Source: Hugenholtzia roseola DSM 9546
GTDB lineage: Bacteria > Bacteroidota > Bacteroidia > Cytophagales > Bernardetiaceae
Direction of reading: 5' to 3'
Assembly: GCF_000422585.1 (NCBI RefSeq)
Contig: NZ_KE383880.1
Location: forward strand, 1 to 64,000
DNA: 64,000 bases
The position numbers and the translations under genes are program-made. Every line of letters begins with the position of its first letter. Position 1 is the stretch's first letter. This document shows, in pieces, positions 235 through 31,140 of this stretch. The notes beneath the pieces were generated by a model. That model was not told where the DNA came from. It ran no database searches and saw only the letters and a list, made by a program, of their open reading frames with translations.

Positions 235-249
235 CTATGACCAGCAAAG

Positions 250-711
250 CTAATAAAAACGTCGCTTTGTTTTAGCCTCTTCATAAGGTAAAAGCCAATT
301 TTTAGGGAAACATCTATAATGAATGTCTTCTATTTTTCCTAAATAACAAAATTTTCCACCAAGCGCACCAAGCGCACGCCAAAGTAACACCTCCATGTAA
401 CCCATTTTCATTGGATTGAAATACCTTAAATCTAGTATTGTGTTTTTGTTATAATAAACTATTGAAGCATAACTTTTAGTTTGATTTGATATAAATTCTA
501 TCGCAATCTTATTTTTTTCAAGAAAAATATTAGACCAATCTTCTGGCAATTTTTCTATGATAGAATATGCTTCTTCACTATACTTAGCTTCTTGGCAAAT
601 AATCTGCATACCTGATAGCTCTTCCATTTTACTTCTAAGAGTAAAAGGGTCTGGTGCTCCTTCTTCAAACCAAACAGCATCAACTATATCTGTAGGAGGT
701 AGGTCGTTCAT
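250..711 (-). CDS. hypothetical protein, 153 aa, AT-rich orphan gene between MITE copies
   Basis: Intact ORF in the six-frame track. Low GC compared with the flanking housekeeping genes. I recognise no motif. Confidence 0.5.
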   Translation of the reverse strand: MNDLPPTDIVDAVWFEEGAPDPFTLRSKMEELSGMQIICQEAKYSEEAYSIIEKLPEDWSNIFLEKNKIAIEFISNQTKSYASIVYYNKNTILDLRYFNPMKMGYMEVLLWRALGALGGKFCYLGKIEDIHYRCFPKNWLLPYEEAKTKRRFY

Positions 712-772
712 GATTTTTTAAGTTTATTGTTGTTTAAACCATTCAAAAAGAAGTTTTGGAACTTGATGTACT

Positions 773-1004: not shown

Positions 1005-1041
1005 AGTAGTTATTCATAAACTTTAATTTATGATATTAAAA

Positions 1042-1665
1042 CTAATCTTCTCCCTCCCAACCCTTTGAAGGCACTCTCCACGAGCCAAAGTCAGGCGGAT
1101 TTTCTCTTAAGTATTTTCTTTCAGTATACCCGTGATTGAATAGGCTATTATTAAAGCCACGAGTTTGCTCTCGCCAGCCGAAAGTAATAACTTCTATAAC
1201 TTCAGGGTCTTCGGTGTCTGAAATTATGTAATAGGGAGTACGAGGGTCTAAGGTAAAGCCCTTTATGCGTTTTGTAGTTTGAACAATAGTATCGCTACCT
1301 ATTACATAGGTAGAAACAACTGTATCTTCGCCTACATTATAAGAGCGTATAAGTATAGATTCTCCAACATATTTATCGTTTTCTTTGGCGACCTCCTTGT
1401 CTTCATAGTTTTTAAATATAAAGGCAGCAAGAGGAGTATAACCATGATAAATATCATGGCTATATAAATAGTATTTTTTTTGACTATTTTTCCACTTGCG
1501 CAATTCTCTGACCCTATATGCAGGATATTTTTTTGTATCCACTTCATAGGAGTAATACTTGCTTTCACAAGATGTAAAAATAATAATTAAACCTAATAGT
1601 ATTAGGTTTTGTTTTATCAAATAGTTGATAATATTATTAATTTTGTGGTTTATCTCTTTGTCCAT
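1042..1665 (-). CDS. hypothetical lipoprotein (ORF runs to 1722; likely start at the Met of MDKEINHK); lipobox-like LIIIFTSC
   Basis: Hydrophobic N-terminal segment followed by Cys (SpII-type signal). AT-rich. No family recognised. Confidence 0.5.
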   Translation of the reverse strand: MDKEINHKINNIINYLIKQNLILLGLIIIFTSCESKYYSYEVDTKKYPAYRVRELRKWKNSQKKYYLYSHDIYHGYTPLAAFIFKNYEDKEVAKENDKYVGESILIRSYNVGEDTVVSTYVIGSDTIVQTTKRIKGFTLDPRTPYYIISDTEDPEVIEVITFGWREQTRGFNNSLFNHGYTERKYLRENPPDFGSWRVPSKGWEGED

Positions 1666-1807
1666 AATTTTTAGCTCTGTGTTTGTATTTTCCTGATTCC
1701 CAATAAGGAGAATGTGTATCATCCCGTTTATTATATTGAGAGTAAACCGTTATCCTTCTTTTGGGATTTTCGTTTCTGTTTGGTGTAACAATAGAGAAAT
1801 TTCCCCT

Positions 1808-1939
1808 CCCCCGTTGGGCGTAGTCTCCGACTACGACCTATCAGTGCGGCAAATCTTAGATTTGCGTTGTAAGATACTGCAAAAATAGCAAAAAACAAAT
1901 ACAAAATGCTGTTTTTTAGATGTTTTAATAGTAGCAGCC
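1808..1939. mobile_element. MITE-like repeat, family A, copy 3 (3'-truncated), followed at 1942..1952 by a second fragment of the left TIR (CCCCGTTGGG)
   Basis: First ~130 bp nearly identical to copies 1 and 2, then diverges. Confidence 0.55.
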
Positions 1940-2000
1940 TTCCCCGTTGGGTACAGCAATGTATAAGTTCTACAAAAAGCCTTGTTTTGTCAAATTAGAA

Positions 2001-2110
2001 ACAAAATAAAATTTGGTTTTGACACCCTCCCTTTGGAGGAGGGCAGGGTGGGGTTCATTCCTTTTTTATTTCAATCCAACTTCGGAAAAGGCAATGCCTT
2101 GTCCCTACAA
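2001..2110. repeat. partial copy of MITE family B (left TIR-like AAATAAAATTTGG, a GGGCAGGGTGGGGTTCATTCC core and a REP half-site GGCAATGCCTTGTCCCTACA)
   Basis: Shares >80 bp with 27600..27700 and shorter blocks with 25797..25890 and 37265..37480. Confidence 0.55.
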
Positions 2111-2217
2111 ATGTCCGCAATTTTTAAAAAGTCCTGACAAAGAAAACCACCTAACCAACCCTATTTCTATTTCACTATTTCACAATGCCCTGCATCATTT
2201 GAGCGCAAATCAAAGCC

Positions 2218-3432
2218 CTATACGTACCCAAAGCGTACCCCAAGACCGCCAAAAGTGCGCCCACAGGAGCAAGAGCAGGGTGAAAAGCCGAGGCAACCAC
2301 AGGCGCGGAAGCCGCCCCCCCCAATATTCGCCTGACTGCCCACCGCCACAAAAAAGAACGGAGCGCGTATGAGATATGCCGTAAGCAAAAGAACAAGAAT
2401 ATGCACCAACATCCAAATAAGCCCCAAACTAATTACCCCCCAATTTTTGGCTACCTCGCCCAAATCCATCTTCATGCCGATACTTGCTACTAAAATATAA
2501 ATAAAAATACTACCAACTTTTGAAGCACCTGCCCCTTCGAGCTTGCGAATAGGTGAAAAGGAATAAAGGACACCGATTGTTGTTGCCAAAACGACAAGCC
2601 AAAAGAAACCATCGGCAAACGTTGTGAGTCGCCACTGTGAAAGGGTCTCGATGTGAGTCTGCATATAGGGAGCAATCAGGTCTGCGCCCCAATGCGAAAG
2701 AGCCGTTGCACCAAAGGCTGCCGCCAAAATCTGGAAGTAGTCGGTAGTAGTCGGATTTTTCGCCACCTGCTTTTGATAATTCGTCAGGTCGGCTTTCAAA
2801 GACTCAATGGCACTGTTATCAGCTTTTAGCCAACGGTCTATTTTGTCGCTAATGCTTGCCCCATACAAGACCACTCCCATCCAGATATTCGCCACAAAGA
2901 CATCGACGACTATCATAGCGGCAAAAAGATTATCGCTCGCCTGATAAATTTCCTTCATAGCCGCCTGATTTGCGCCCCCTCCAATCCAACTACCTGCAAT
3001 CGTCGCCATGCCACGCCAAAGTTCCGTACCACCCGCCTGCTCTACCACTTCGGGAAAAAAAGCGTGCATTACCCAAAGCGAAATAGGTCCTCCTATCATC
3101 ACACTGACCGTTCCTGCCAAAAACATCACAATAGCACGCCAGCCCAAATTGAGAACGCCTTTCAAATCGATGCCAATGCAAAGCAGCACCAAAGCCGCAG
3201 GAAGCAGGTAGCGCGAACTCACAAAATAGAGTTTAGAACTTTCGCCTGAAATGACATTAAAATAGGTGAGCAAGGCAGGCAAGAAATAACAAAGTACCAA
3301 GGCAGGCACAAACTTGTAAAACTTCTGAAAGATAGGATGTTGGCTGCGTTCTGTGGTGAAAATGAAGGCTAAAATTGTTATCAAAATTCCAAGAACGATA
3401 GCGTCGTTGGTAAAATAAGGTTGATTTTCCAT
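2218..3432 (-). CDS. DUF819-family integral membrane protein
   Basis: 404 aa with multiple predicted TM segments and an N-terminus typical of DUF819 proteins. The Gly/Cys-rich C-terminal tail is unusual and could hide a frameshift. Confidence 0.55.
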   Translation of the reverse strand: MENQPYFTNDAIVLGILITILAFIFTTERSQHPIFQKFYKFVPALVLCYFLPALLTYFNVISGESSKLYFVSSRYLLPAALVLLCIGIDLKGVLNLGWRAIVMFLAGTVSVMIGGPISLWVMHAFFPEVVEQAGGTELWRGMATIAGSWIGGGANQAAMKEIYQASDNLFAAMIVVDVFVANIWMGVVLYGASISDKIDRWLKADNSAIESLKADLTNYQKQVAKNPTTTDYFQILAAAFGATALSHWGADLIAPYMQTHIETLSQWRLTTFADGFFWLVVLATTIGVLYSFSPIRKLEGAGASKVGSIFIYILVASIGMKMDLGEVAKNWGVISLGLIWMLVHILVLLLTAYLIRAPFFFVAVGSQANIGGGGFRACGCLGFSPCSCSCGRTFGGLGVRFGYV

Positions 3433-3676
3433 TTTTTCTAAAAAAGGGGCGCGGCAGAAAGCCTATGTTTAGGGTGTTGTTGGGTTAGATTTCAAAGTAA
3501 GAAATTTTTTTAACAATAAGCAAGCCTTCACAAAAAAAAGTGCGCTCGGATATGATTTTTTTTTGAGTTGTGATGAAAAAGTCGTTTTTTATTTGGCATA
3601 GACAGAAAAACAAGGGGTTATTTCCGTGTGTATTAGATGCTGGTCTACCTGAAACTAATAAGGAGATTGCTTTTTA

Positions 3677-5350
3677 TCAAAATTTCCAGCGATTTACAGC
3701 AAAATCTATCAACTCTTTATTTCTTATATTTATTTGATTGTCATCCCAATTTTTATATTGTATAAGGTCGTGTTCAATAATAAGTTTTGATTTTTTGTAA
3801 ATTTCTTTTTTTATGTTAAATTCTTTATTTGAAAGCACAGAATTATCATAGGTAATGGTGAGATTGCCCAACTTATGTAAATTTTTGGAAGGTTCTCGAT
3901 TGAGTGGATTTTGTGGTTCTATGTGTTCAACACTTAATTTTTTAGTCTTAAAATCATTACAAAAATCAGTAAAACTAAAAGGAAAAAAGTCAGAGTTTTT
4001 ATATTTATGTAAGTAACATTCATACTCAAAAAAGAAATATGCTATTTCATCACTTTGTTGGTCATTAGCAAAATTGATACTTTGTAATGCCAGCCTAAAA
4101 TTTTGAGTTGTGGCATATTCATTATTACATAGCAGTTCCTTTATGGTTTTTAACTCAGCCTTTTGAGAGTAGATTTGAAAGGCTAATTTATGAAAAATTG
4201 TCTGGGCGGCTTGCCCTTTTCTATTTCCTATTTTGTAAACTCTAAAAGAAAAAACTTCTAATATACGCAATATTTCCAATAATTCTATTTCTTTATATCT
4301 ACTAAATAAAGAAATTAATAAAGGAATAAAATTTGTATCATTTCCAAGCCATGTAATTTTGCTTACAATATTTTTAACTTCTTCACTATGAAATTCCTTT
4401 CTTATTATTTTAGAATAAAAAGATGTAACATTAAATAAAAAATCTACGTAATTTTTTACATCATTCTTAGTACAGTTGTCTTTTATATTTAAATCTGATT
4501 TAATTTGTGCATGAATATCTGAATCATTAACACCTTTATATATAATATAAGAATATCGTAGTATATCATTTTCTGTTGTTGGAGTAGCTTTAATTCGCAT
4601 CATTTCTTTAAATATATTTCCAAATGTATTATTTATATAATATGATAAATTTTCATCTTGTAATCTTGCTGAAAGAAATATAAGATAGTTTTTAACTTTA
4701 TCTATTTGAGTTAAAGGTAGTCCTCTATTATTCATAGTTTCAAAAACCACTCCTACATCAGAATCTTTTGCTAAAGTATAAAAATTAACTTTAAATTTTG
4801 TCATCAAACAACTATAGAATTTTTGCAATTTTGTTATATCTTTATGACTTTCTAAAAAACGACTAATTTGCTTTTTAGCTTCGGCAAGATTTTCTTGAGA
4901 TTTATTTTCATACTTATTTGGTAAATTAGAAACAGTGTTATTAATTATGTATTTTTTATAAAAATCATCACTATCACTATTCAAAGTTAGTATAGGATTA
5001 TTCTGATATATAATATTTTTTAGTATATCTTCTAAAACGTCTTTATCTACTTTTAATGCGTTAAATCTATTATAGATGGCTTGAACAAAAATAGTAAATG
5101 TTGTAAATCTTTGCTGTCCATCAACTACATCAAATAGTTTAAATGTTTTTGGAAAAATCTCTCTACTCCCTTTTTCAATCAAGGTAATTGTCCCAGTGTA
5201 GTGTTCCTTAACCTTGTCGTCTTCTGCCGCTTCTTGCAAATCTTCCAAAAACTCTTTAACTTGTTGTGCCTGCCAAGCATAACCACGCTGATAGTTAGGA
5301 ACATTAAACATTCCTTGTTGAAAAAATGCCTGTACTGTTATTAAATCCAT
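3677..5350 (-). CDS. DUF262/DUF1524 two-domain endonuclease (GmrSD-like type IV restriction enzyme family)
   Basis: N-terminal DGQQR motif (VVDGQQRFTTF). C-terminal His-Me finger DUF1524 signature (SVEHIEPQNP...HKLGNLTI). Markedly AT-rich compared with its neighbours. Confidence 0.8.
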   Translation of the reverse strand: MDLITVQAFFQQGMFNVPNYQRGYAWQAQQVKEFLEDLQEAAEDDKVKEHYTGTITLIEKGSREIFPKTFKLFDVVDGQQRFTTFTIFVQAIYNRFNALKVDKDVLEDILKNIIYQNNPILTLNSDSDDFYKKYIINNTVSNLPNKYENKSQENLAEAKKQISRFLESHKDITKLQKFYSCLMTKFKVNFYTLAKDSDVGVVFETMNNRGLPLTQIDKVKNYLIFLSARLQDENLSYYINNTFGNIFKEMMRIKATPTTENDILRYSYIIYKGVNDSDIHAQIKSDLNIKDNCTKNDVKNYVDFLFNVTSFYSKIIRKEFHSEEVKNIVSKITWLGNDTNFIPLLISLFSRYKEIELLEILRILEVFSFRVYKIGNRKGQAAQTIFHKLAFQIYSQKAELKTIKELLCNNEYATTQNFRLALQSINFANDQQSDEIAYFFFEYECYLHKYKNSDFFPFSFTDFCNDFKTKKLSVEHIEPQNPLNREPSKNLHKLGNLTITYDNSVLSNKEFNIKKEIYKKSKLIIEHDLIQYKNWDDNQINIRNKELIDFAVNRWKF

Positions 5351-5536
5351 TTTAAGTATTTGAGTTAATTAAACTGAGTTGAAATAGTAACGTTAGAACA
5401 TAATCTTTATGCAAGTTACAACCATTATCTCATTATTCCAAATAAAAAATCTAAAAGCCTCAACCCTGCTCGAAAGTAGCATTTTCGAAGAGGATTGAGG
5501 CAATTTTATTAAAATTTTAAAAACTTATGATTTTGT

Positions 5537-7240
5537 TTATTCTAATCTATTTTTTAAATCTAAATCAAACCTTTCAGCATAGTTTTGCGCAATTTCATAA
5601 CCAGCATCTGCATGGCGGATAACGCCCATAGCAGGGTCGTTGTGCAACACTCTTTTAAGGCGTTTTTTGGCTTCCTTTGTGCCATCTGCCAAAATGACCA
5701 TGCCTGCATGAATCGAGTAACCCATACCGACTCCGCCGCCATGATGCAAAGAAACCCAAGTTGCGCCGCCTGCGGTATTGATAAGGGCATTTAGCACTGC
5801 CCAGTCTGCAATCGCATCAGAGCCGTCCTTCATGGCTTCGGTTTCGCGGTTAGGTGAAGCTACCGAGCCTGTATCGAGGTGGTCGCGCCCAATGACAATC
5901 GGGGCTTTCACAATTCCCTTTTTCACGAGCTTGTTCAAAGCCAAAGCCGCCTTCTGACGCTCCCCCATGCGCAGCCAACAGATACGCGCAGGAAGCCCCT
6001 GAAAGGCAATGCGCTCCTGTGCCATTTTTATCCAACGGTGCAAAGACTCATCTTCGGGGAAAAGTTCTAATAGCACTTTATCACATTCGTAGATATCCTG
6101 TGGGTCGCCTGAAAGGGCTGCAAAGCGGAAAGGACCCTTGCCCTCACAAAAGAGGGGGCGAATGTAGGCAGGCACAAAGCCGGGGAAAGCAAAGGCATTG
6201 TCGATGTGGCGTTGGTCGTGCGCTTGTCCGCGTAGGTTGTTGCCATAGTCGAAGACCACAGCTCCCCTTTTTTGCAATTCTACCATCTGCAAGACGTGAC
6301 GCGCCATTGTATCCAAAGAGAGTTTGACATATTGCTGCGGATTTTCATTTCGCAAAACTGCTGCCTGCTCTACACTGATATTTTCGGGAAAATAGCCATT
6401 CAGTGGGTCGTGAGCGGAAGTCTGGTCGGTAAGCACATCGGGGGTGAGATTTCTATCTAAAAGACGCTGTAGCAAATCCACAATATTGCAAACTACCCCA
6501 ATAGAAAGGGCTTCGCCGTTGGCTTTTGCAGCTAAGGCAGCATCAATGGCAGCATCTATGTCGTGTATTTTTTGGTCTAAATAGCGCGTTTCAAGGCGTT
6601 TATCGATGCGCCACTCTTCCATTTCGGCTGCCAAACATACGCCGCCATTCATCGTAACGGCTAAGGGTTGCGCTCCGCCCATACCTCCTAAACCTGCCGT
6701 AACGCTTAGTGTATTTTTAAGGCTGCCGCCAAAATGCTGCTGCGCAACGGCAGCAAAGGTTTCATACGTGCCTTGCACAATTCCCTGCGAACCAATATAA
6801 ATCCACGAGCCTGCCGTCATCTGACCATACATAATCAGCCCTTTTTTATCTAATTCGTGAAAAGTGTCCCAATTTGCCCATCTTGGCACGAGCATAGAAT
6901 TAGAAATCAAGACACGCGGCGCGTTTTTATGAGTAGGCAAAATCGCAACAGGCTTGCCCGACTGTATCAATAAAGTTTCGTCATCTTCTAAATCTTTGAG
7001 TGCCTTGACTATCAAATCAAAAGCCTCCCAGTTGCGTGCCGCCTTTCCAATGCCGCCATAAACGATAAGGTCTTCGGGTTTTTCGGCAACTTCGGGGTCT
7101 AAGTTATTGTAAAGCATGCGCAGGGCAGCCTCCTGCTGCCAACCTTTGGTATTGAGCAGATTGCCTTTTGGGGTCGCACCCATTTTAGAGATGTCGGTGA
7201 TAGTATTCGAATCTAATTTTGAATCTAAGGTAGTGTCCAT
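5537..7240 (-). CDS. hutU: urocanate hydratase
   Basis: Strong family-level similarity over the full length ([13 protein letters not shown]-binding region). The track ORF extends to 7378, but the Met at 7240 gives the canonical ~567-aa length. Confidence 0.9.
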
Positions 7241-7432
7241 TTGTTTGTGGTGTGAATGGGTTTTGGAATCTAAATTTTGGAATAGCCAAAAATACACATT
7301 TTCATTCGAACCCTCAAAATAGCGCAAAAGTTTTCCTACTGCACCCCAAAAGCCGAAACGCCTCCCAAAGCCCTGCAATCGGGTTTAGGAGGCATCTTCT
7401 TGTTTGCTTTTGTAAGAAACGCTAATCAAGTC

Positions 7433-8299
7433 TTACTTTTTAAAAGTTTTGGCAAACCACAGTTGCGCCTTCGAAGGCTTGTTTTCGGGTCTTAAAAGCG
7501 GCTCCTGCTCTAAGGCAGCTTGTTCGGTCAGGTTGCTCACTTTGGGCATCAAAAGCCAAAGTAAAAGATAAACAGGCAGCGTCGCACCTTTCACCAAAAG
7601 CCCCCCTAAGAAAAGCGCACGTACTAAGGTTTCATCTATCCCTAAATATTTTGCCAAGCCCGAAGCTACTCCTGCAATTTTGCTATCTGTGGCACTGCGG
7701 CGCAATCGCTTGACATTGAAATCGCCCAAATCGGCAGAGGAAGGCGCAGCCATCCAAGCTACCAAATACGCCAATAGTGCGAAGCCCCCTGTCATAAATA
7801 GCCCTCCCACAAAGGCGAGGCGCGTCCAGAGCGGGTCTATTCCCAAATAGTGCGCCAGACCAGAGGCTACGCCGCCCAACTTTTTATGGCTTCGGTCTAA
7901 ATAAAATTTGGTATTTTGTCGCATAGGCTTTGAATATGCCTGCTGACTGTTTATCGCTTGTTTGCCTTTCCATTGACGTTGTCTTTCAAAATAGAGCGCG
8001 TCTAAATCTATGCCTTCTGATAGGGCAATTTCGCGCGGCGTGCCTACCTGCAAAATCATCAATTCTATATCCTGCGCATCGATGGTGTATTTGGGCGGAT
8101 TGAGGCGCAAAAGGAAAATTTCGGCGATACGGTTTTCCAAATCTTCCAGAATATTATCCAAATCTCCGCCTTGCGAGCCTTCGATTTTTTGGAAGGCTTG
8201 TTGTAGGCTAAAAAGATAGTTTTTGAGCGTTTCGTAATCGCGTGGCTCTATGTAAAAAGTGATGCCACCAATTTGAATTTCGTAGGGCGTAGCGTCCAT
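7433..8299 (-). CDS. PspC-domain membrane protein (two PspC repeats)
   Basis: Two copies of the motif KxxGVASGLAxYLGID followed by a TM helix. Likely start at MDATPYE (8299). Confidence 0.7.
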   Translation of the reverse strand: MDATPYEIQIGGITFYIEPRDYETLKNYLFSLQQAFQKIEGSQGGDLDNILEDLENRIAEIFLLRLNPPKYTIDAQDIELMILQVGTPREIALSEGIDLDALYFERQRQWKGKQAINSQQAYSKPMRQNTKFYLDRSHKKLGGVASGLAHYLGIDPLWTRLAFVGGLFMTGGFALLAYLVAWMAAPSSADLGDFNVKRLRRSATDSKIAGVASGLAKYLGIDETLVRALFLGGLLVKGATLPVYLLLWLLMPKVSNLTEQAALEQEPLLRPENKPSKAQLWFAKTFKK

Positions 8300-8582
8300 A
8301 AAAGAAGGGGAATGAGAGGTAGTAATGAGAGGTAGTGAGGAAAAAGAGTGTGAGAACTTTTTTTGGAATAAGTAGAGAAAAAAAGATTTTCTTACAAAGG
8401 GCAATTTTTTTATCCGAAATAGCGCACAAAAAAGCAAAAACGATAAATTGTTTGTTTTTTTTGGGCTTTCACCTAATTTTCTACTTCGAAGAAGGCTAAT
8501 TGAAGCTCGACTTTAAACCGAATTTTATCCTAAAATTTAGCCTAAAATTCAAGCCAAAATCCTACTTAGTTTTGGGTCAGAT

Positions 8583-8996
8583 TTAAGATGCAAACTTAGC
8601 CGCTCTTTCAGTGCTTGGTTCGCTTGCCGTTTGAGGGGTCAGAATTTGAGCGGTAGCATTTTGAAGTTGTGTCCAACTTTGCAGCAACCCCAGATATACG
8701 GCTCTGCCCTGCGGCGTAATTTGGTAATATTTGCGCGGCGGTGCGCCTACGGCTTCGCGCCAAGCGTATGTGAGCAAGCCTGCCTTTTGCAGCCGATTGA
8801 GCAATGGATAAAGCGTGCCTTCCACCACAATTAGCGTCGCTGCCTTCAATTCTACGAGCATATCACCTGCATAAGTTTCCTGTCGCGCCAAGATTGATAA
8901 GACACACAGTTCTAAAATGCCTTTGCGCATCTGCACTTGCGCATTTTCTAAGGTGTTTAGATTGGTGTTTAGGTTCGTCGGTTCGGTTGTGTTCAT
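8583..8996 (-). CDS. PadR-family transcriptional regulator
   Basis: Winged-HTH PadR signature (ILELCVLSIL...GTLYPLLNRLQKAGLL). Sits upstream of the PspC-domain gene, a common pairing. Confidence 0.8.
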   Translation of the reverse strand: MNTTEPTNLNTNLNTLENAQVQMRKGILELCVLSILARQETYAGDMLVELKAATLIVVEGTLYPLLNRLQKAGLLTYAWREAVGAPPRKYYQITPQGRAVYLGLLQSWTQLQNATAQILTPQTASEPSTERAAKFAS

Positions 8997-9163
8997 AAAA
9001 AAGAAAGGACAAAAGGTAGAGTAAGAAGGTGCGAAAAGCAAAGCCCCTTGCATTTTTGTACGCAACCTTGTATAAAAAGTTACTTGGCAATACAAGGTAG
9101 TGAAATTTTTTTTCTCTTTTTTTTGTTTTGATAAAAAAAGCTGCTACCTTTGCAGAACCAAAA

Positions 9164-9237
<74 letters not shown>

Positions 9238-9257
9238 CTCTTTTAAATAAACTGAAA

Positions 9258-9300
9258 AAACTTCTTTTTTAGCTCCAAAGGCAAAAAAGAAGTTTTTTTT
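9258..9300. terminator. bidirectional intrinsic terminator (AAACTTCTTTTTT...AAAAAAGAAGTTT hairpin followed by T8) between tRNA-Ala and the convergent vault-protein gene
   Basis: Inverted repeat and T-run read directly. Confidence 0.6.
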
Positions 9301-9388
9301 ATGACTTTTTCCAAAGTTTTTTTCCAAAAATTAGGTACAAATGTAGGGACAAGGCACTGCCTTGTCCCTACAATACATTTGCGAAAAG

Positions 9389-19160: not shown

Positions 19161-20249
19161 ATGCAAGCCATTCTCGAAACTTTTCAAAAAGTAGTCATTC
19201 AAATCGCAACCCCCTACGGCGCAGGGACGGGGTTTTATTTAGCCGATTTTGAACTTATCGTAACCAACTATCACGTAGTAGCAGGCTGTCGGCAGGTGGC
19301 AATCAGTGGTAAGTATCTGAAAAAGAGCTTGGCAGAGGTAGTTTTTATCAATGTGGGGAAGGATTTGGCGTTTATTAAGATGCCAGAAGAAACCCGCTAT
19401 GACTTTCCCAAAGTAGAATTGGCACATAAAAACGTGCAAGATGGGGACACCATTACGGCTATCGGACACCCCTACGGGCTTAGTTTTACGGCAACGCGCG
19501 GCATTGTTTCGAAGGCGAAACGTTTATACAAAAATACATACTACATTCAATTAGATGCGGCTATCAATCCGGGCAATAGTGGCGGTCCCTTAGTGAATGA
19601 GGCGGGAGAGATTGTAGGCGTAAATACTTTTATTTTGTCGGAAGGGAAAGATTTGGGTTTTGCCCTGCATGCGCAATATTTAAAAGAAGACCTCGAAGAG
19701 TTTGTCAAATTAGAAAGAAAGGAGAGTTTGCGTTGCCCCTCTTGTGCCAATATGGTGGTAGAAGCTACGCTTACGAATGATTATTGTCCGCATTGTGGCA
19801 CAGCCCTAACACGCCTAAGTCAGGAGGATTTTCAGCCCACAGGCGTTGCCAAAATTATAGAAGATTTGCTCTATGAGTTGGGTAAAAATGCCGTTTTAGC
19901 GCGTGTAGGCGCAAATCGTTGGGAAATTGTAGAAGGCAGTGCCAAGATATTTCTGCACTATCAGCCCGAAACAGGCTATATCTTTGCCGACTCTCAACTT
20001 TGCAGCCTGCCCAAATCGAATATCAGCGATATTTATAGCTACCTTTTGCACGAAAATTATCAGTTACAGGGCTTGCGTTTTAGCGTGCATGAGCAAGATG
20101 TTGTGCTTTCGATGGCTCTTTTTGCCCAATATCTCGAACCTGCATCGGCGCGTAAGCAGTTGTATTATCTAATCAAAAAGTCAGACGAATACGATAACAT
20201 CTTGGTACAAGACTACGGTGCGTCTTGGCGCGAATCGGAAGTCTTTTAA
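19161..20249 (+). CDS. trypsin-like (S1) serine peptidase with a C-terminal zinc-ribbon/uncharacterised domain
   Basis: His in TNYHVV, Ser in GNSGGPL, and a CPSC...CPHC motif. Confidence 0.65.
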   Translation: MQAILETFQKVVIQIATPYGAGTGFYLADFELIVTNYHVVAGCRQVAISGKYLKKSLAEVVFINVGKDLAFIKMPEETRYDFPKVELAHKNVQDGDTITAIGHPYGLSFTATRGIVSKAKRLYKNTYYIQLDAAINPGNSGGPLVNEAGEIVGVNTFILSEGKDLGFALHAQYLKEDLEEFVKLERKESLRCPSCANMVVEATLTNDYCPHCGTALTRLSQEDFQPTGVAKIIEDLLYELGKNAVLARVGANRWEIVEGSAKIFLHYQPETGYIFADSQLCSLPKSNISDIYSYLLHENYQLQGLRFSVHEQDVVLSMALFAQYLEPASARKQLYYLIKKSDEYDNILVQDYGASWRESEVF

Positions 20250-20458
20250 AGGGTGCTGGGCAGGGAAATTTGAAAATAAGGGTTAAAAAAGGGGTTTTCA
20301 GACCTTTTAAGGTACGTTATACGATTTTATTTGCTAATTTTGCCAAAGGTCTGATTTAGCACCTTGCGCCTGCAATTTTGCGCACTATGTTTTATAGAAA
20401 AATTTTGCTGCTTTTGCCTCTTTATTTGCCGAGTCCATTTCCAAACATCTTTACTCGA

Positions 20459-21100
20459 ATGCGATACCTGCCCTATTTTGGCTTTGCGCTCTTGCTTATT
20501 CTTGCCGACCAAGCCCTCAAACTCTACATTCATTTCAATATTCCCTTAGATGGGGAGATTCCTGTTTTTGGCGACTGGTTCAAATTGCACCACACCCTAA
20601 ACCCTGGCATGGCGTTTGGCATCGAATTGGGTTCGGAATATGGGAAATTGGGGCTTACGCTTTTTCGCACGCTGGCAGTCTTGGTCATTGGTTATTTCTT
20701 GGCACGTGCCGTCAGGGAAAAGCAGCCGCGCGGCTTGCTTGTGTCGGGCGCAGCGATTTGGGGCGGCGCGTTGGGCAATGTCGTAGATAGCACTTTTTAT
20801 GGTGTTTTCATCGAGGGCAATGCCACACCAATCGGCGCGATAGAACCCCCTTTCTATCCTTGGTTTCATGGGCAGGTGATAGATATGTTCTATTTTGATA
20901 TATGGAAAGGTTATTTTCCTGAATATGTACCCCTTTGGGGCGGCAAATACTTCTCTTTTTTCCCTATCTTCAATATCGCTGATGCGGCTATCTTCTGTGG
21001 CGTAGTGGCGGTGCTAATTTGGCACAAAAAGTTTTTCCCACACGTAACGGAAGAGGAGGAACGAAAAAAAGAAAATCAGCCCACACAAGAGGTAGAATAG
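20459..21100 (+). CDS. lspA: lipoprotein signal peptidase II
   Basis: LspA family motifs (NPGMAFGI, FNIADAAI) and 4 TM segments. The track ORF begins at 20378. Confidence 0.8.
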   Translation: MRYLPYFGFALLLILADQALKLYIHFNIPLDGEIPVFGDWFKLHHTLNPGMAFGIELGSEYGKLGLTLFRTLAVLVIGYFLARAVREKQPRGLLVSGAAIWGGALGNVVDSTFYGVFIEGNATPIGAIEPPFYPWFHGQVIDMFYFDIWKGYFPEYVPLWGGKYFSFFPIFNIADAAIFCGVVAVLIWHKKFFPHVTEEEERKKENQPTQEVE

Positions 21101-21242
21101 AATTTGAAACCGCCATTTGAAAAAAGCATAGAAGCCTACAATCCTTCTGTGCTTTTTTCGAGCTATGCTTTTTTCGAGTTTGAAGCCCCAAAGACCGTTT
21201 TTTCAGATGTTATGATATTTTTACGCTTTTTCTTTTAAAAAG

Positions 21243-24200
21243 ATGATAAAATATTTTTTCCTTTGCACGTTGTTTCTTTTGATGATGCCACTTTCGGCAC
21301 AGCAATATCTTTTTAAAGAATACGGTTTGGGGCATGGGCTGCCTCAATCGGAACTTCCAAGCCCACAGGCGATTTGTGTAGATAGTCAGGGGCGCATTTG
21401 GGTCGTAACCAATGGGGGCGGCATGGCAATTTTAGAACAAGAAAAGTATCGCCTCTTCAAAGAAAAAGACGGACTCAATAGCAACCTTTTAATGGGACTT
21501 ATAGAAAGCCCTGAAAAAGAACTTTGGATACTTTCACAAAACAAAAGCATTTCCCGATATGATGGGCATAACTTTTATTCCTACCCCGAATTAGAGGGCA
21601 AATTGCGCTTAGGTGGCACTCTCGCCTGCGATAAAAGAGGCAATGTTTGGGTCTTGGTCTTTGGTGGAGGCGTGGGTATCAATCAGACGCTCTATTGGAA
21701 ACCGCGCCAAAGTCAGACCTTCGTACCTTTCGAGCAAGCCGATTCGCTTACTGCCCCTTCGCCTACGTTGGGTCTGACACATACCTTAGATTATGACCCA
21801 ATTTTGTCGCAAAACGGGAAATTATATGCTTTTGATGGGAAAGTTTTTGTAGAAAAAAAATACCCTTCCGATTCGCTTCTGGTAGGCAAAAACCTGTTTT
21901 TCAATTACAAAGACTTCGAGGGAAATGAATGGCTCACCGCCATAGACCCTAACACAGGCAATGCGCACCTTCTTTTTTTCGAGGTAAGAAAAAAGCGTTT
22001 CACAAAAATTGAAGTGCCGCAGCCTTTTATTTGGGGTTTGGGGTGGCAGGTACGCTATTTTACAAATAAAAAATTGTATTTAGTAAATCCAAACCTAAAC
22101 CAAATTTTAATATATCAAAACAAAAAATTTGTCAAATCTTATGGCTTTGCCAATGGTTTGCAGGGCGCACTAACGGGCTGTGGAGCAGTAGTGGAAGATT
22201 CGGTAGGCTCGGTTTGGGTAGGAACGCGCGGCGCAGGACTTATTAAATTGCCCAACGATTATTTTAGCAATTTTACCCAACAAGATGGCTTGCAAGGCAA
22301 TATGACTTTTGGTATCTATGAAGATAGCAAAAAAAGAGTGTGGCTTGGCAGCAGTGCCGCAGGCATTACGCTTTACGAAGGCGGCAGGCTCAAAACCGTC
22401 CTTGCCAGCAACCAGCAAGCCGCCGTAGGGCGCGTATCGCATTTTTTTGAAAAGGGCGACACCATTTTTGCCGCCACAGGAGGAGGTATTATTTCAATTA
22501 TAGAATCAGAAAAAGACAAATTTTCTTGGCAATTCAGCCATCAAAGGTTTCATATTCCTGCGGGCTATTACAGAACCATCAGGCGCATAGATGATATTGT
22601 TTGGTTTTGTTCGCAAGCAAATGGCGTTTTTGGGTACGATATAGTCGCCGATAGTTTGTTGTATCAATTCAATTTGAATGAAGTGGGTTCGAGTACGATA
22701 CTCGATGTCAAGAAAGATAAAAAAGGCAACTATTGGTTTGCTACCTTCAACGGACTTAGCAAATGGGACGGCAAAAAGTTTGAACTTTTCAATACCAAAC
22801 AAGGGCTTAAAAATAATTTTATCCTCCAAATTCATATCGATAGGAAAGACCACATCTGGGCAGTGGCTTACAATGGTGGCTTGGCGCGTTTCGATGGCAA
22901 AAATTTTACTACCTATCAAAGCGGCGAAGGGCTTTCTTCGGATATTATTTACTCTATTCTGCCCGTTTCGAAGGTTCAAAATCAATATTGGATAGGCACA
23001 CAAAGAGGCTTAGACAAAGCCACTTTCGACGACAGAGGCAATCTCGTCAAAGTAGAATATTTCAACAAAGAACTTGGCTATTTGGGTGAAGAATCAAACG
23101 GCAAGGCGATAATGGAAGATAGCGAAGGCGGCATTTGGGTTGGGCATCTTACAGGGGTTACGAGGTGCGATTTTGGCTCTGCCGTTGCTCCAAAAGCTCA
23201 CAAGACTTTTATCACTGCCGTCAATTTGTCGCTTAATCAGACCAACTGGCGCGATTCTACCTATCAGAAATGGTATGAAAGTCTGACCACTTGGGAAAAT
23301 CTACCCCAAAAGTTGCGCCTGCCTGCCGAAGAAAATTCGCTCGTCATTCGTTTCTACACCACAGACTTTTCTAACCCCAAAGGCGCAACCTATCAATGGC
23401 AATTAGAAGGACTGCACAGCGATTTCCAACCGCCTACCTACCGCTCGGAAGCCAACTTTTCAAACCTGCCCGCAGGCACTTACACCTTCAAAGTGCGCTC
23501 TCGTGTGCAGGAGAATCAGGCTTGGAGTCAAACGGCTACTTTTGAGTTTGAGGTCTTGCCGAAATGGTGGCAAAAAATTGAGGTGCAGATAATTGGCTTT
23601 CTGTTCTCAACTTTGATGATTTTTGGTCTTATCAAATGGCGTACTAAGAGTTTGGAAGCCAGCAAGATTGCCTTAGAAAAGTTGGTAAAGGAGCGCACCC
23701 AAGAGGTAGTCAGACAAAAAGATGAGATTTTAGAAAAAAATAAGACCTTAGAAGTGCAGCAAGAGAAACTTTCACAGGCTTATGACGAAATTCAAGAGAA
23801 AAATCAGAACATTACGGCGAGCATTACCTACGCCAAGCGCATACAAGAGGCGATGCTACCTTCGCAGGAGCGCATTTGGCGCATTTTGCCACAAAGTTTC
23901 GTCTTTTATCAGCCGCGCGACATTGTTTCAGGAGATTTTTATTGGCTTTCCGAAATCGACCATCAGATTATTATTGCAGCCGTAGATTGCACAGGGCATG
24001 GCGTGCCGGGGGCGTTTATGTCGGTCATTGGTAGCAATATTTTGTATGAAGTCATTGAAAGTCAGCGCATTTTAGAGCCTGCCGCTATTTTATACGCCCT
24101 GCACGAAAATGTGCGCCGCCACCTCAATCAAGACCAAACACACAACCGCGACGGCATGGACATCGCCCTTTGTATCATCGACAAAAACGAGCGGTTGCTA

Positions 24201-24563
24201 CATTTTGCAGGGGCAAAAAATCCGCTCTTGCATGTGCGCCAGGGCAGTTTTGAACTTATCAAAGGCAGCAAATATCCCATTGGCGGCATTGGCAGCAGCC
24301 AGAATCCTATCTTTACACAAAAATCTATTCCGATAGCCGAAGATAGCACCTTTTACATCTATTCAGACGGTTTTCAAGACCAATTTGGCGGCAAAGAGGG
24401 GCGCAAGTACATGTCCCAACGCTTTCAAGCCCTTTTGGTGAGCCTATCAAAGCGTCCGCTACAAGCGCAAAAAGAAGCATTGGCAGAAGAACTCACGCTT
24501 TGGCAGCAGGCAGGCAAAGAAGAACAGGTAGATGATATTTTGGTGATAGGGTTTAAATTTTAA
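21243..24563 (+). CDS. sensor protein: periplasmic two-component-regulator beta-propeller repeats plus a Y_Y_Y-like domain, a TM segment, a coiled coil and a C-terminal PP2C/SpoIIE serine phosphatase
   Basis: Repeated W-x-G-T/S motifs and a TM near residue 780 (IIGFLFSTLMIFGLI). The PP2C region reads SGDFYW...DCTGHGVPGAFM...YSDGF. Confidence 0.7.
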   Translation: MIKYFFLCTLFLLMMPLSAQQYLFKEYGLGHGLPQSELPSPQAICVDSQGRIWVVTNGGGMAILEQEKYRLFKEKDGLNSNLLMGLIESPEKELWILSQNKSISRYDGHNFYSYPELEGKLRLGGTLACDKRGNVWVLVFGGGVGINQTLYWKPRQSQTFVPFEQADSLTAPSPTLGLTHTLDYDPILSQNGKLYAFDGKVFVEKKYPSDSLLVGKNLFFNYKDFEGNEWLTAIDPNTGNAHLLFFEVRKKRFTKIEVPQPFIWGLGWQVRYFTNKKLYLVNPNLNQILIYQNKKFVKSYGFANGLQGALTGCGAVVEDSVGSVWVGTRGAGLIKLPNDYFSNFTQQDGLQGNMTFGIYEDSKKRVWLGSSAAGITLYEGGRLKTVLASNQQAAVGRVSHFFEKGDTIFAATGGGIISIIESEKDKFSWQFSHQRFHIPAGYYRTIRRIDDIVWFCSQANGVFGYDIVADSLLYQFNLNEVGSSTILDVKKDKKGNYWFATFNGLSKWDGKKFELFNTKQGLKNNFILQIHIDRKDHIWAVAYNGGLARFDGKNFTTYQSGEGLSSDIIYSILPVSKVQNQYWIGTQRGLDKATFDDRGNLVKVEYFNKELGYLGEESNGKAIMEDSEGGIWVGHLTGVTRCDFGSAVAPKAHKTFITAVNLSLNQTNWRDSTYQKWYESLTTWENLPQKLRLPAEENSLVIRFYTTDFSNPKGATYQWQLEGLHSDFQPPTYRSEANFSNLPAGTYTFKVRSRVQENQAWSQTATFEFEVLPKWWQKIEVQIIGFLFSTLMIFGLIKWRTKSLEASKIALEKLVKERTQEVVRQKDEILEKNKTLEVQQEKLSQAYDEIQEKNQNITASITYAKRIQEAMLPSQERIWRILPQSFVFYQPRDIVSGDFYWLSEIDHQIIIAAVDCTGHGVPGAFMSVIGSNILYEVIESQRILEPAAILYALHENVRRHLNQDQTHNRDGMDIALCIIDKNERLLHFAGAKNPLLHVRQGSFELIKGSKYPIGGIGSSQNPIFTQKSIPIAEDSTFYIYSDGFQDQFGGKEGRKYMSQRFQALLVSLSKRPLQAQKEALAEELTLWQQAGKEEQVDDILVIGFKF

Positions 24564-24636
24564 TTTTTTTATTTTTTAAAATTTGTTTTTGAAAATACTT
24601 AATTAAAATCTTTTTTTCACTTTAAAAAGACAAAAT

Positions 24637-25668
24637 ATGACCACTATCACCGAACTAAAACGTCCGAATTGGTATCTTGCTATCGGAATCCCCTTGCTTA
24701 TCGCCATCAGTAGCTTTTGTATCACCCAAACAGAGGCTTTTAGCAACAACGCCGAACTACTTTCCCAAGCCATCTTGGTTGATATGCTCCTGCTTGCGCC
24801 TTTTCTCTACTACCTTGTGATAAGAAAAAGTACGGCAGGCAAGCATACCTTGTTAAGGCTTTGGTTGCTTAGTTTGTTGGTCTTAGAATTGATTTTAGGC
24901 AATCAGGCAGGAGAAAACCTAACGGCTTGGCAATATGTGAAAACTTTTGTCTATCCGCTACTCGAAATCGGCTTGCTGCTTTGGTTAGGATATAGTTTTT
25001 ATGTGGCAAGGAAAGAGCTAAAAACGCAACAAGTAGATTTTCCAAATCTGACGCGCCAGATGTTGGGCAAAATTATGGGTCAGAGTAAAGCCACTAATTT
25101 TGTCGCTGCCGAAATAATTTGCCTCTACTACGTTTTTGCGTGGGAAAAAAAGGCAAAACCAAATTATCAAACCTCTTTTAGCACCTACCAAGAAAGTGGC
25201 GGTATCGGACTTTTGTATGGCTTACTCTTTATTTTGCTGGTGGAAACGCTTGTCCTGCACCTGCTTTTGGCACAGTGGAATCCAACAGTGGCGTGGGTTG
25301 CGACAGGGCTAAGTCTTTATGCTTGCTTGCAAATTTTTGCACACACAAGGGCTATCAAGATGCGCCCGATTGTTTTGGATACCAATAACCTACAAATTTA
25401 CAACGGACTTGCTGCGGAAGCCATTTTTAGTTATGATAAAATAGAAAAAGTAGAACTTTCAAATGAAACTCCTTCTGACAAAAAAGCAATAAAAATGGTG
25501 CTGCTGCCTGATTTAGAAACCCATAATTGCGCTATTTTTCTCAAAGAGGAAGTAGCGGTAAGCAAGTTTTTTGGCATCAAACAGAAAACAAACCTGCTAC
25601 TTTTTTATACCGACCGCCCCCAAGATTTTCTTCATCAGCTTGCACTTAGGAAAGCACAGATTTTGTAA
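24637..25668 (+). CDS. hypothetical polytopic membrane protein
   Basis: 343 aa with multiple hydrophobic segments. No family assigned. Confidence 0.45.
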   Translation: MTTITELKRPNWYLAIGIPLLIAISSFCITQTEAFSNNAELLSQAILVDMLLLAPFLYYLVIRKSTAGKHTLLRLWLLSLLVLELILGNQAGENLTAWQYVKTFVYPLLEIGLLLWLGYSFYVARKELKTQQVDFPNLTRQMLGKIMGQSKATNFVAAEIICLYYVFAWEKKAKPNYQTSFSTYQESGGIGLLYGLLFILLVETLVLHLLLAQWNPTVAWVATGLSLYACLQIFAHTRAIKMRPIVLDTNNLQIYNGLAAEAIFSYDKIEKVELSNETPSDKKAIKMVLLPDLETHNCAIFLKEEVAVSKFFGIKQKTNLLLFYTDRPQDFLHQLALRKAQIL

Positions 25669-25673
25669 AGTGG

Positions 25674-25774
25674 CGTTGTTACAACGGTCAGAATGTCAAA
25701 AAACGGGGTTTTGTGCTTCGCGCAAACCTCCTGAACCCCCACCCTGCCCCAGTGATGTTAAGTTCTGTGAAAAG
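25674..25774. repeat. left arm of a ~100-bp imperfect inverted repeat (partner at 27797..27893)
   Basis: Its reverse complement matches the right arm at about 85% identity, including the CACCCTGCCCCAG core and a GTTACAACGGTCAGA end. Confidence 0.6.
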
Positions 25775-25796
25775 TCTTGTTTTATCAAATTTGACA

Positions 25797-25890
25797 CGAA
25801 ATAAAATTTGGACTGAACCCTATTTTTGGGTCTGAAAATTCTTTTTTATTTCAATCTCACTACGGACAAGGCAATGCCTTGTCCCCACAA
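25797..25890. repeat. partial MITE family B copy (starts with TIR CGAAATAAAATTTGG, ends at a REP palindrome)
   Basis: The sequence shares the 15-bp TIR and the TTTTTTATTTCAATC...CGGACAAGGCAATGCCTTGTCCC segment with 27600..27763. Confidence 0.55.
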
Positions 25891-26121
25891 CGGTAGCGCG
25901 AAGCTCCAGATTCGCCTTTGTACTGTGTTTTTTGGCATCTTCCCGTTTTGGGGCTTTTTAGAGAAGTGCCTAAAAGTTGAAATCGTAAATATTCGCCCCT
26001 TTATCGACAAATGCAGTGCCTTCATCTTTATGCCCTGATTTTGAGCAAAGAATTTGAAAAGAAGGGTACAACACTATCCTATCAATTCATTCCTTCTTTC
26101 AAACCTCAACTTTGCAGGACA

Positions 26122-27465
26122 ATGAACGCGACACAAAAAATCCAAGAAATAGAAAATTACTTAGGCAGTCTATTTTTCAATCCTTATCGCCGCAAAAGCT
26201 ATGCTTACGCTCACGACTACCAAGAACTTTTGGCAGCCATCGAGCTACACCTTGCACAGGGCAAGCGACACGCCAAAGCGCGTAATTGGCAGGCTGCTAT
26301 TCACGAATACGACACCATCTTGCTTTGGCAACGCAATCATACAGAGGCACTTTTTTTGTTAGCCGATGCCTATAAAAACCGTTGGCTCGACTACGGAAAC
26401 AAGCGCGACAAAGAGAAATCGCTTGCTTATGCACAACACTGTTTGCAGGTAGCACCCCACCATGCAGAAGCCAATGAGCTTGTCCATCAGATTTATACCA
26501 CCAGTCAGCTCGAAAACATTTGGGAAAGCAAGCATACCTACCAAGTTGCGTTTGCCACACTTATTGCTACGGCGATGCTTGCCTGCGGCGTTTGGGCGTA
26601 TCATTATTTCGGCTTCCAACTTTATCAAACAGAAAGCGCACCCCTGACTTTTTCTGCCTTAGACTTGATTCAGCAAGAGCCTGCCGCCCCCAACAACCAA
26701 AACACGTGGCTGCCCACCGAAGCCACACAAGCGGCACAGCGCACAATGCAGCAAGTTCCCGTAGAGTTTTTGTATCAGCATCAAAATCAGCACTTACAAC
26801 TGCACCTAAGCGTAGAACAATCTTTGTATCGCGCCTATCAGGAAGCCTATTCCTACAATCTTTTGGCAGATGTGGCGGTGCAGGGCGCAAATGTTGCCCT
26901 TCTCAAACTCAAAGTGGATTTAGTTGATGCCGCAGGTACGATTTTGCGCACCGATTGGATAGACTTAGTGCAGCCACACGAGCAATTAGCACACGCTGGC
27001 GAGGTCTTGCCCTTGCATTATTTGGAATACGAAGAAGGGCAAAATTTAGACTTGGCAAAGATTCAGATTACAGTTGCCGAAATACAATGGATAGAGCAAA
27101 ACGAAACGGCTTTCATACAAGAGAAAGAATTGCTTTGGCAGACAGCACCACTTGAAGGAACAGAAATTGTTATCAAAGAGCGCAAAAATGAGCTACTCGA
27201 TGCTCAAGGCGATGGCACTTATCACCATATCGAGTGGCAAATCGGCAACAAAGGCGAAAATCCTGTTCAGTCCTTGCAAGTAGAAATTGCTTGGTACAAT
27301 CAGAAGGGGCAAATTGTAGAAGCGCGTACTACCTACCTGACGCACTCCTCACAGCCGAGTTTGAAAAGCAAGCAAAAGCGTAGTGAAAATCGTACCTACC
27401 GCTTGGCAAACATCAAAGCCGAAGACATCGCAACTTACACCCTAACGGTGATAGATGCCCATTAA
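26122..27465 (+). CDS. hypothetical protein with an N-terminal TPR-like helical region and one central TM helix (AFATLIATAMLACGVWAYHYF)
   Basis: Intact ORF that lies wholly inside the inverted-repeat-bounded module. Track ORF from 26011. Confidence 0.45.
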   Translation: MNATQKIQEIENYLGSLFFNPYRRKSYAYAHDYQELLAAIELHLAQGKRHAKARNWQAAIHEYDTILLWQRNHTEALFLLADAYKNRWLDYGNKRDKEKSLAYAQHCLQVAPHHAEANELVHQIYTTSQLENIWESKHTYQVAFATLIATAMLACGVWAYHYFGFQLYQTESAPLTFSALDLIQQEPAAPNNQNTWLPTEATQAAQRTMQQVPVEFLYQHQNQHLQLHLSVEQSLYRAYQEAYSYNLLADVAVQGANVALLKLKVDLVDAAGTILRTDWIDLVQPHEQLAHAGEVLPLHYLEYEEGQNLDLAKIQITVAEIQWIEQNETAFIQEKELLWQTAPLEGTEIVIKERKNELLDAQGDGTYHHIEWQIGNKGENPVQSLQVEIAWYNQKGQIVEARTTYLTHSSQPSLKSKQKRSENRTYRLANIKAEDIATYTLTVIDAH

Positions 27466-27599
27466 AAGCGTCCTTTTTGGTTTGTTGTCTTGTGATATAC
27501 CGTTTTTTTAGATAGTTTTTAGGATAGGATAACAGAAACGCTACCCTCTTTGAGGGTAGTGTTTCTCTTTTTTAAGCCCTTTTCAGAAAACTACAAAAA

Positions 27600-30414: not shown

Positions 30415-31140
30415 CTATCTACATTTTTGTATATAAACCACCTTTATTTCTTTATTTTCTACACTATCCATATAAATTTCGTTTTCATTCGTTTCGTCAG
30501 TAGGAACATTGAAAAAATTATCCCTATTAAAACTTACATAAGTTGTTTTTTTGTTTTCGCTTGTTTTATTTTTTTGCACAATTTTAGGCACTACCGTATC
30601 AAATAGGGTTATGATTGTATCTAAATCTTGAACAGTATACTTATAACCGTACTCTAACACAGGAAAAGCACCCAAAGAAATGTGCCTGAAACACTCCTCT
30701 TTATTTTCAGGGTTTTCAAAGAAAAAATGTATTTCTGGAACGTACCCTTTTTTGTAAAAATCAATTCCCCTTGAAGAATTATGATAAATCACATGAATAT
30801 AAAAGTCATTTTTCTTGTAAATATTTGTTACTTTTAAAGAGTCTATTTTTTTACCCATTTTTATTTCATTTTTACTTATTTTGGGATATCGAGGAGGAAT
30901 AACTGTATGAAGACTTCGCATATCTATTACTGTATTTCTATTGTTTGTTATTTGAAAATTAGAGTTTTCATTGTGTACGCTTTTTATTTCCCAATGCGGA
31001 GGCATTTTAAAAGAAAAGTAAGGATGCTCGATATGACACCAGTTGTCTGTATTGATGTTTTGAATGTTTAGATTTTGTTCTTCTGCTGAATTGCAGGCAG
31101 TTAGGAGTATTACGATAAATAATACAATATTTTTTTTCAT
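30415..31140 (-). CDS. hypothetical lipoprotein in a strongly AT-rich islet
   Basis: N-terminal MKKNIVLFIVILLTAC lipobox. Its composition is clearly lower in GC than the flanks. Confidence 0.55.
   Translation of the reverse strand: MKKNIVLFIVILLTACNSAEEQNLNIQNINTDNWCHIEHPYFSFKMPPHWEIKSVHNENSNFQITNNRNTVIDMRSLHTVIPPRYPKISKNEIKMGKKIDSLKVTNIYKKNDFYIHVIYHNSSRGIDFYKKGYVPEIHFFFENPENKEECFRHISLGAFPVLEYGYKYTVQDLDTIITLFDTVVPKIVQKNKTSENKKTTYVSFNRDNFFNVPTDETNENEIYMDSVENKEIKVVYIQKCR

Follow-up and report, generated by a model that had tools for sequence, protein, structure and literature searches.

A foreign gene for a probable HEC-06-like restriction enzyme of the GmrSD superfamily between the DUF819 gene and hutU of Hugenholtzia roseola

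The Cytophagales bacterium Hugenholtzia roseola DSM 9546 carries, between the gene for a DUF819 membrane protein and hutU, a foreign, horizontally acquired gene for a protein of 557 amino acids with a DUF262 and a DUF1524 domain. The gene lies at 3677..5350 on the minus strand of a 64-kb stretch of DNA (contig NZ_KE383880.1, positions 1 to 64,000), which is referred to as the window in the following and to which all coordinates apply. We consider it likely that this gene encodes a single-polypeptide restriction enzyme of the GmrSD superfamily that resembles HEC-06 (Hma-embedded candidate 06) and acts on modified DNA, and that it was acquired horizontally as a one-gene islet. An anti-phage role, the ability to act as a single protein and a dependence on modified DNA are properties that it most probably shares with its published homologues, from which we extend them to this protein. 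The protein itself is already present in the NCBI database under a generic annotation, as the entry ‘DUF262 domain-containing protein [Hugenholtzia roseola]’ is 100% identical to it.

The gene is a complete, ATG-initiated open reading frame (ORF). An earlier note, made from the letters of the DNA and its translated ORFs, had described it as a two-domain DUF262 + DUF1524 gene with a DGQQR and a His-Me finger motif, and this description proved accurate on every count. In a Pfam search, both GmrSD_N (PF03235, formerly DUF262; 114.6 bits, cut-off 33.2) and GmrSD_C (PF07510, formerly DUF1524; 58.6 bits, cut-off 23) are found in the same polypeptide above their gathering cut-offs. For the motifs, we aligned the 557-residue query with 31 homologues of 29-81% identity, and checked by translation that the motifs lie at the window coordinates given; the DGQQR and His-Me finger motifs are intact and invariant across this alignment (Table 1). 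Homologues of 554-557 amino acids are co-linear with the product of the gene, and the ratio of nonsynonymous to synonymous substitution rates (dN/dS) against homologues is 0.04-0.07 with a saturated dS, which points to purifying selection and implies that none of the sampled copies was recently transferred from another.

The predicted structure agrees with this architecture. An AlphaFold2 model on the homologue alignment (predicted local distance difference test score, pLDDT, 91.4; predicted template modelling score, pTM, 0.86; pLDDT of about 90 in the DUF262 domain) begins with an alpha/beta domain and ends in a beta-beta-alpha element, with a long linker made up of helices alone between the two. 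DSSP finds helices only for residues 215-468 of this model, followed by two strands (473-476 and 497-500) and a helix (503-506), such that the beta-beta-alpha element spans residues 473-506. H476 ends the first of these strands, N496 precedes the second, and N503 and N508 are located in and after the helix; with H476 closing strand 1, the modelled element has the layout of a His-Me finger. Foldseek searches of the PDB at E <= 1e-3 retrieved members of the GmrSD superfamily only, namely DndI (9JFL, 2.4e-16), SspE (6JIV, 9e-8; 7DRI, 1e-4) and BrxU (7P9K, 3.4e-4).

Within this superfamily, profile and sequence searches narrow the affiliation of the protein further. Its best PADLOC match is the HEC-06 model PDLC04157 (3.4e-68, 228.6 bits, model positions 12-556 of 558), and the HEC-06 models are matched by 32 of the 32 aligned family members, with a best E-value of 3.7e-81, the lowest of any family; the PADLOC models for SspE and mREase_IV cover roughly the first 100 residues only (residues 4-98 in the case of mREase_IV). 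In a phmmer search against PDB sequences, DndI (9jfl) aligns over residues 9-555 against its own residues 14-593 (3.7e-11) and SspE over residues 12-97 (2.2e-5), while BrxU gives no match at E <= 1. Given that HEC-06 is the best match in PADLOC, and that phmmer finds DndI over the full length and misses BrxU, we assign the protein on sequence grounds to an HEC-06/DndI-like branch of the GmrSD superfamily; by the same comparisons, it is no close relative of the canonical GmrSD/BrxU enzymes, which cut DNA with glucosylated hydroxymethylcytosine (glucosyl-hmC). The view of the earlier note that the gene encodes a type IV, modification-dependent GmrSD enzyme is thereby upheld for its superfamily membership and intact motifs, but not for its place in the superfamily, which lies outside the glucosyl-hmC-cutting GmrSD/BrxU branch; its modification dependence we infer from experiments on the HEC-06 family.

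These experiments come from two studies. According to the first (Payne et al., bioRxiv 10.1101/2024.01.29.577857), HEC-06 alone protects E. coli from phages, its mutants Q79A, R80A, E471A and H472A lose defence, and the RLFDS motif of BrxU is reported to be absent from it. The four essential residues correspond to Q80, R81, E475 and H476 of the H. roseola protein, all of which are invariant in our alignment. In the second study, HEC-06_Bact, a homologue from Bacteroides, stopped T-even phages, but not T4-GT7 with its unmodified cytosines, and was classed by the authors as modification-dependent (bioRxiv 10.1101/2025.02.28.640651).

Taken together, a mechanism can be proposed in which the ParB-like DUF262 domain (YQR, DGQQR, FxxxN) would bind and hydrolyze nucleoside triphosphates and read the chemical state of the DNA, and in which the helical linker would relay the resulting licence to the His-Me finger nuclease of the DUF1524 domain (E475/H476, N496, N503/N508). 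The nuclease would then nick or cleave DNA bearing a foreign base modification. Phages with hypermodified DNA would thus be restricted and the unmodified host chromosome would be spared, so that no cognate methyltransferase should be needed.

The surroundings of the gene are in keeping with the earlier description of it as solitary, with no modification gene nearby. Across the 64 kb, a Pfam scan of the window ORFs of at least 120 amino acids detected neither a DNA methyltransferase gene nor any dnd or ssp gene. PADLOC, applied to 15 other ORFs including all of those near the gene, returned as its sole match a weak one to DdmD, which lies some 58 kb off at 63157..63786; downstream of the gene, the window extends for only 3.6 kb. 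Likewise, no dnd or ssp gene, DNA methyltransferase gene or other gene for defence is found beside six homologues in other genomes (L081, L084, L087 and L171-L173; Table 1).

The foreign origin of the gene is supported by its low GC content, the unrelated settings of its homologues, the confinement of the similarity to the ORF and its absence beside the flanking genes in a relative. With a GC content of 0.261 and a GC content at third codon positions (GC3) of 0.172, it ranks lowest among the 43 window ORFs, whose mean GC content is 0.433 with a standard deviation of 0.055 (about -3.1 standard deviations for this gene) and whose mean GC3 is about 0.47. Both flanking genes are markedly richer in GC (0.473 for the DUF819 gene and 0.479 for hutU). 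In this respect too the earlier note had judged correctly: it had named the two flanking genes, which are borne out by their PF05684 and TIGR01228 matches, had remarked on the conspicuous difference in composition, and had placed the gene in an AT-rich islet, which we find bounded where the homology to a relative ends.

The homologues occupy a variety of contexts. Between the window and the loci of L081, L084 and L087, nucleotide similarity amounts to 74-78% and starts and ends no more than about 10 nt from the ORF. One of these loci, L087, lies on a contig that, judging from the genes it carries, is a mobilisable plasmid, and in most of these homologues' hosts the gene is poorer in GC than its surroundings. 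More distant full-length homologues (about 27% identity) are located beside pglX in BREX loci of Acinetobacter plasmids and in prophages of Streptococcus suis. The protein database contained no homologue with an identity between 81% and 100%. P0007, a protein of equal length with 77% identity, was considered as an orthologue from a sister lineage and rejected, as it sits in DNA of 25-30% GC; given this gap in identity and the low-GC host of the 77% match, no sister-lineage orthologue is evident.

We also compared the locus with those of relatives. A search of genome and metagenome collections with the DUF819 protein yielded 160 loci, all with at most 62% identity, and at none of the 160 is there a hutU or GmrSD gene within flanks of up to 10 kb on each side; as an empty-site test these loci were rejected, the relatives being too distant. 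In the nearest sampled relative, which came from a larger protein database (JGI metagenomes 3300044993/4/8), the DUF819 protein is 88% and HutU 95% identical. There, the DUF819 gene is preceded by homologues of the window genes 26011..27465 and 27928..29616, and hutU is found in a different neighbourhood. Nucleotide homology to the relative's DUF819 block extends from 2174 to 3549 and then ends; that to its hutU block extends from 7333 to the hutU stop codon at 5537, where it ends as well. Neither beside DUF819 nor beside hutU does this relative have a GmrSD-type gene. Universal synteny of the gene in the lineage, which the earlier note had named as a finding that would speak against its view, therefore does not apply: the gene is missing at the 160 DUF819 loci of distant relatives and beside both flanks in the closest sampled relative.

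Table 1. Features of the nuclease gene, its islet and the flanking genes in window coordinates, together with homologues of the nuclease in other genomes (identities refer to amino acids)
Feature	Position	Strand	Details
DUF819 membrane protein gene	2218..3432	-	PF05684, 1e-69
AT-rich islet	3550..5536		1,987 bp, GC 0.265; without counterpart beside the flanking genes in the nearest sampled relative
DUF1524 / GmrSD_C His-Me finger nuclease domain	3704..4108	-	residues 415-549; PF07510, 7.9e-16
His-Me finger Asn residues N496, N503, N508	3827..3865	-	invariant in alignment
EHIEPQ motif	3911..3928	-	residues 475-480; E475, H476 and Q480 invariant, P479 nearly so; E475/H476 catalytic, at end of beta-1
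All-helical linker	4109..4681	-	residues 224-414; DSSP of AlphaFold2 model
DUF262 / GmrSD_N, ParB-like NTPase (sensor) domain	4682..5320	-	residues 11-223; PF03235, 8.3e-33
FxxxN motif (F203 E T M N207)	4730..4744	-	F203 and N207 invariant
DGQQR nucleotide-hydrolysis motif	5108..5122	-	residues 77-81; D77, G78, Q79, Q80 and R81 invariant
P-x-YQR motif	5285..5293 (YQR)	-	P18, Y20, Q21 and R22 invariant in alignment
Hairpin with T-run	5457..5501	-	36 nt past hutU stop; -28.1 kcal/mol, z -4.55, 0/200 shuffles as stable
hutU, urocanate hydratase	5537..7378	-	TIGR01228, 930 bits
Homologue L081			79% identity; between UbiA prenyltransferase gene and lipoyl synthase gene (lipA), 123-kb contig
Homologue L084			81% identity; variable region
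Homologue L087			76% identity; 16-kb contig with Rep3, ParA, resolvase and MobA/MobL
Homologues L171-L173			36-50% identity; L171 between SPOUT methyltransferase gene and thiolase gene; L172 and L173 with no methyltransferase, dnd or ssp gene adjoining

Two sets of observations weigh against the reading as an HEC-06-like enzyme that acts on modified DNA and arrived as a one-gene islet, the first of which concerns the kinship of the protein. Both by sequence and by fold, its closest solved structure is DndI, with SspE next, and the runners-up among the PADLOC matches are the ‘Orf5’ models (1e-54), which we take as pointing to DndI-like enzymes. The likeness of the ‘Orf5’ models to DndI in length is conjecture. 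Moreover, phosphorothioate DNA stimulates the ATPase of DndI via a cavity with the residues P23, Y25 and Q26 (PMC11662687), and these are equivalent to the invariant P18, Y20 and Q21 of the H. roseola protein, whose Y20 is aligned with Y25 of DndI and Y30 of SspE (PMC11662687). Together with the match to the PADLOC SspE models, this would suit an effector of the DndI/SspE type, with a DUF262 domain that recognizes a modification of the host's own DNA, for example phosphorothioation due to genes located elsewhere, and with a nuclease directed against DNA that lacks this mark. We nevertheless regard such an effector as unlikely. The three cavity residues do not discriminate for phosphorothioate sensing, because the same residues constitute the general P-x-YQR signature of DUF262 domains, and the HEC-06 models of PADLOC score above its Orf5 and SspE models. 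DndI is encoded beside dndBCDE, and SspE likewise beside its modification genes (PMC11662687), whereas dnd and ssp genes are found neither among the window ORFs of at least 120 amino acids nor beside the six homologues, the plasmid-borne one included. Finally, DndI is harmful to its host in the absence of phosphorothioate (PMC11662687), a property that one would not readily expect of a gene spreading on its own.

It also seems improbable to us that the protein, while sharing this fold and a role in defence, responds to a trigger other than a DNA base modification, for instance to a protein of the phage or to a particular DNA structure, and acts in abortive infection or as a general nickase. 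Although the available text of the HEC-06 paper (10.1101/2024.01.29.577857) does not state what HEC-06 recognizes, and although the read-outs in the superfamily are diverse, as GmrSD, BrxU, SspE, DndI and TgvAB illustrate, the HEC-06 family member that stopped the modified T-even phages failed against T4-GT7 (10.1101/2025.02.28.640651), and the characterized full-length DUF262-DUF1524 enzymes all read a DNA modification.

The second set of observations concerns the islet. Since hutU lies apart from DUF819 in the nearest relative, the segment 3550..5536 marks where two blocks were joined by rearrangement and does not correspond to a clean empty site; the two genes are neighbours in no relative that we found. 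A mobility gene (integrase or transposase) was not found in the Pfam scan, the flanking direct and inverted repeats amount to chance matches in low-complexity AT-rich sequence, and no tRNA gene is adjacent, the nearest being 3.8 kb away. A scan for sigma-70 sites showed no enrichment (19 sites against 13.3 +/- 4.0) and found no promoter, and the TAnnTTTG motif was not found upstream of the nuclease gene. This lack of flanking mobility genes, repeats and recognizable promoters could also suggest a relic that is decaying or has no role in defence, or else a native gene of long standing whose GC content is merely low, but both are highly improbable, as the full-length ORF is co-linear with homologues of 554-557 amino acids, has a dN/dS of 0.04-0.07 and retains invariant catalytic residues, and as native ancestry is at odds with a GC3 of 0.17 against about 0.47 in the host and with the lack of the gene next to either flank in a relative whose hutU is 95% identical.

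Some features of the islet bear on how the gene may be expressed. The hairpin and T-run downstream of hutU is likely the terminator of that gene; in consequence, the nuclease gene probably has a promoter of its own within about 90 nt (5351-5440). Downstream of the nuclease gene there is no significant structure (z 0.05), the small ORFs in the intergenic sequence are short and of low complexity, and a tRNA is the sole Rfam match in 1-12000.

For the HEC-06-like enzyme proposed here, a more far-reaching scenario can be envisaged, although we consider it unlikely: the HEC-06-like subclade of the Bacteroidota might read a modification that is new to type IV restriction and occurs in phages of Cytophagales/Bacteroidota, and it may spread as a bare, ORF-sized cassette. 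The idea of a bare cassette arises because the homology ends no more than about 10 nt from the ORF in every comparison, because the gene is repeatedly located between housekeeping genes, and because here it sits between two blocks that lie apart in the nearest relative. If true, this would be an unrecognized mode of moving single defence genes.

Apart from the nuclease gene, the comparison with the relative brought to light several features of the region. The relative's DUF819 block abuts a homologue of window 25980-27573, and its hutU lies elsewhere. About 22 kb of genes with native GC content (window 3550..25979), which include hutU, PspC, PadR, the vault-protein-like gene mentioned below and kynurenine-pathway genes, are arranged differently in the relative, which indicates extensive rearrangement. 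An intergenic repeat of about 140 nt with the palindrome GGACAAGGCAGTGCCTTGTCC is present at 1953-2111, 25750-25890 and 27658-27809, as well as at 16860-16995 of the relative's locus L175; its hairpin part recurs alone at 9342-9372, 13391-13417, 37453-37475 and 44296-44324. Copies of the repeat lie close to the ends of synteny blocks, near 25980 and just past the DUF819 stop, and it might be involved in the rearrangements. As regards hutU, the listed ORF begins with TTG at 7378 and comprises 613 amino acids; with homologues of 554-563 amino acids and protein homology to the relative that sets in near 7228, translation probably begins some 50 codons further downstream.

Other parts of the window are likewise AT-rich. 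The low-GC ORFs (0.29-0.34) at 250..711, 1042..1722 and 30415..31140, all on the minus strand, have no match in Pfam, PHROGs or PADLOC, and the former two have none in NCBIfam either. These two lie just past the DUF819 gene, which means that AT-rich DNA is found on both of its sides. At the window end, an AT-rich stretch on the minus strand (61023..63786, GC about 0.32) contains a 713-amino-acid ORF without a Pfam, PHROG or PADLOC match and, overlapping it, a 209-amino-acid ORF (63157..63786) that weakly resembles the C-terminal end of DdmD as modelled in PADLOC (1.4e-9); this stretch may be another foreign or defence islet. A 253-amino-acid ORF at 32408..33169 on the plus strand, near the AT-rich ORF 30415..31140, has a Phage_lysozyme domain (2e-17), with no other phage genes seen nearby. 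Lastly, an 817-amino-acid ORF at 9389..11842 on the minus strand, which adjoins a tRNA-Ala gene, matches the Pfam family MVP_shoulder (4.9e-28) and, below the cut-off, Vault_3 (8.9e-6), and looks like a bacterial major-vault-protein-like gene.

In a broader context, the nuclease gene adds one further stand-alone defence gene of the GmrSD/HEC-06 type from a poorly sampled Cytophagales lineage. It provides a clear case of a single-ORF defence gene that landed between housekeeping genes, and a modification-dependent nuclease of new specificity might be obtained from it. At the same time, it leaves the current understanding of the GmrSD/HEC-06 family unchanged and is best regarded as one more, ordinary representative of a defence family that is already known.

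How this member relates to the characterized systems can be summarized as follows. With BrxU, Eco94GmrSD and the EcoCT GmrSD, which are stand-alone type IV enzymes that cut DNA with modified cytosines, the protein shares the two-domain architecture, DGQQR and the His-Me finger, but the fold match to BrxU is weak (3.4e-4, TM score of about 0.3). SspE (PDB 6JIV/7DRS) belongs to the same superfamily and matches both in its N-terminal sequence and in its fold (9e-8), but with about 770 amino acids it is a larger protein, is coupled to sspABCD, and aligns significantly in sequence over the N-terminal stretch only. DndI from Salmonella Cerro 87 (PDB 9JFL) has the same combination of a DUF262 NTPase and a DUF1524 nickase, and its P/Y/Q cavity residues are kept in the H. 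roseola protein; yet the two are merely 18-19% identical in the fold alignment, and DndI adjoins dndBCDE and senses phosphorothioate, whereas no dnd genes were detected in the window or beside the homologues. From HEC-06, the gene differs in that it lies outside any Hma, BREX or type I restriction-modification cluster, its flanking ORFs having no PADLOC match; the embedding of HEC-06 in a multi-gene defence system, however, is the context of its discovery and no strict definition. The host, too, is different, being a member of the Cytophagales, and the likeness is one to profile models, with the activity here predicted. It is nonetheless an extensive likeness: both are single-protein systems of similar length (557 amino acids against model lengths of 558-569), their motifs are numbered nearly identically (Q80/R81 against Q79/R80, and E475/H476 against E471/H472), and the EH(I)xP motif is found at nearly the same residue numbers.

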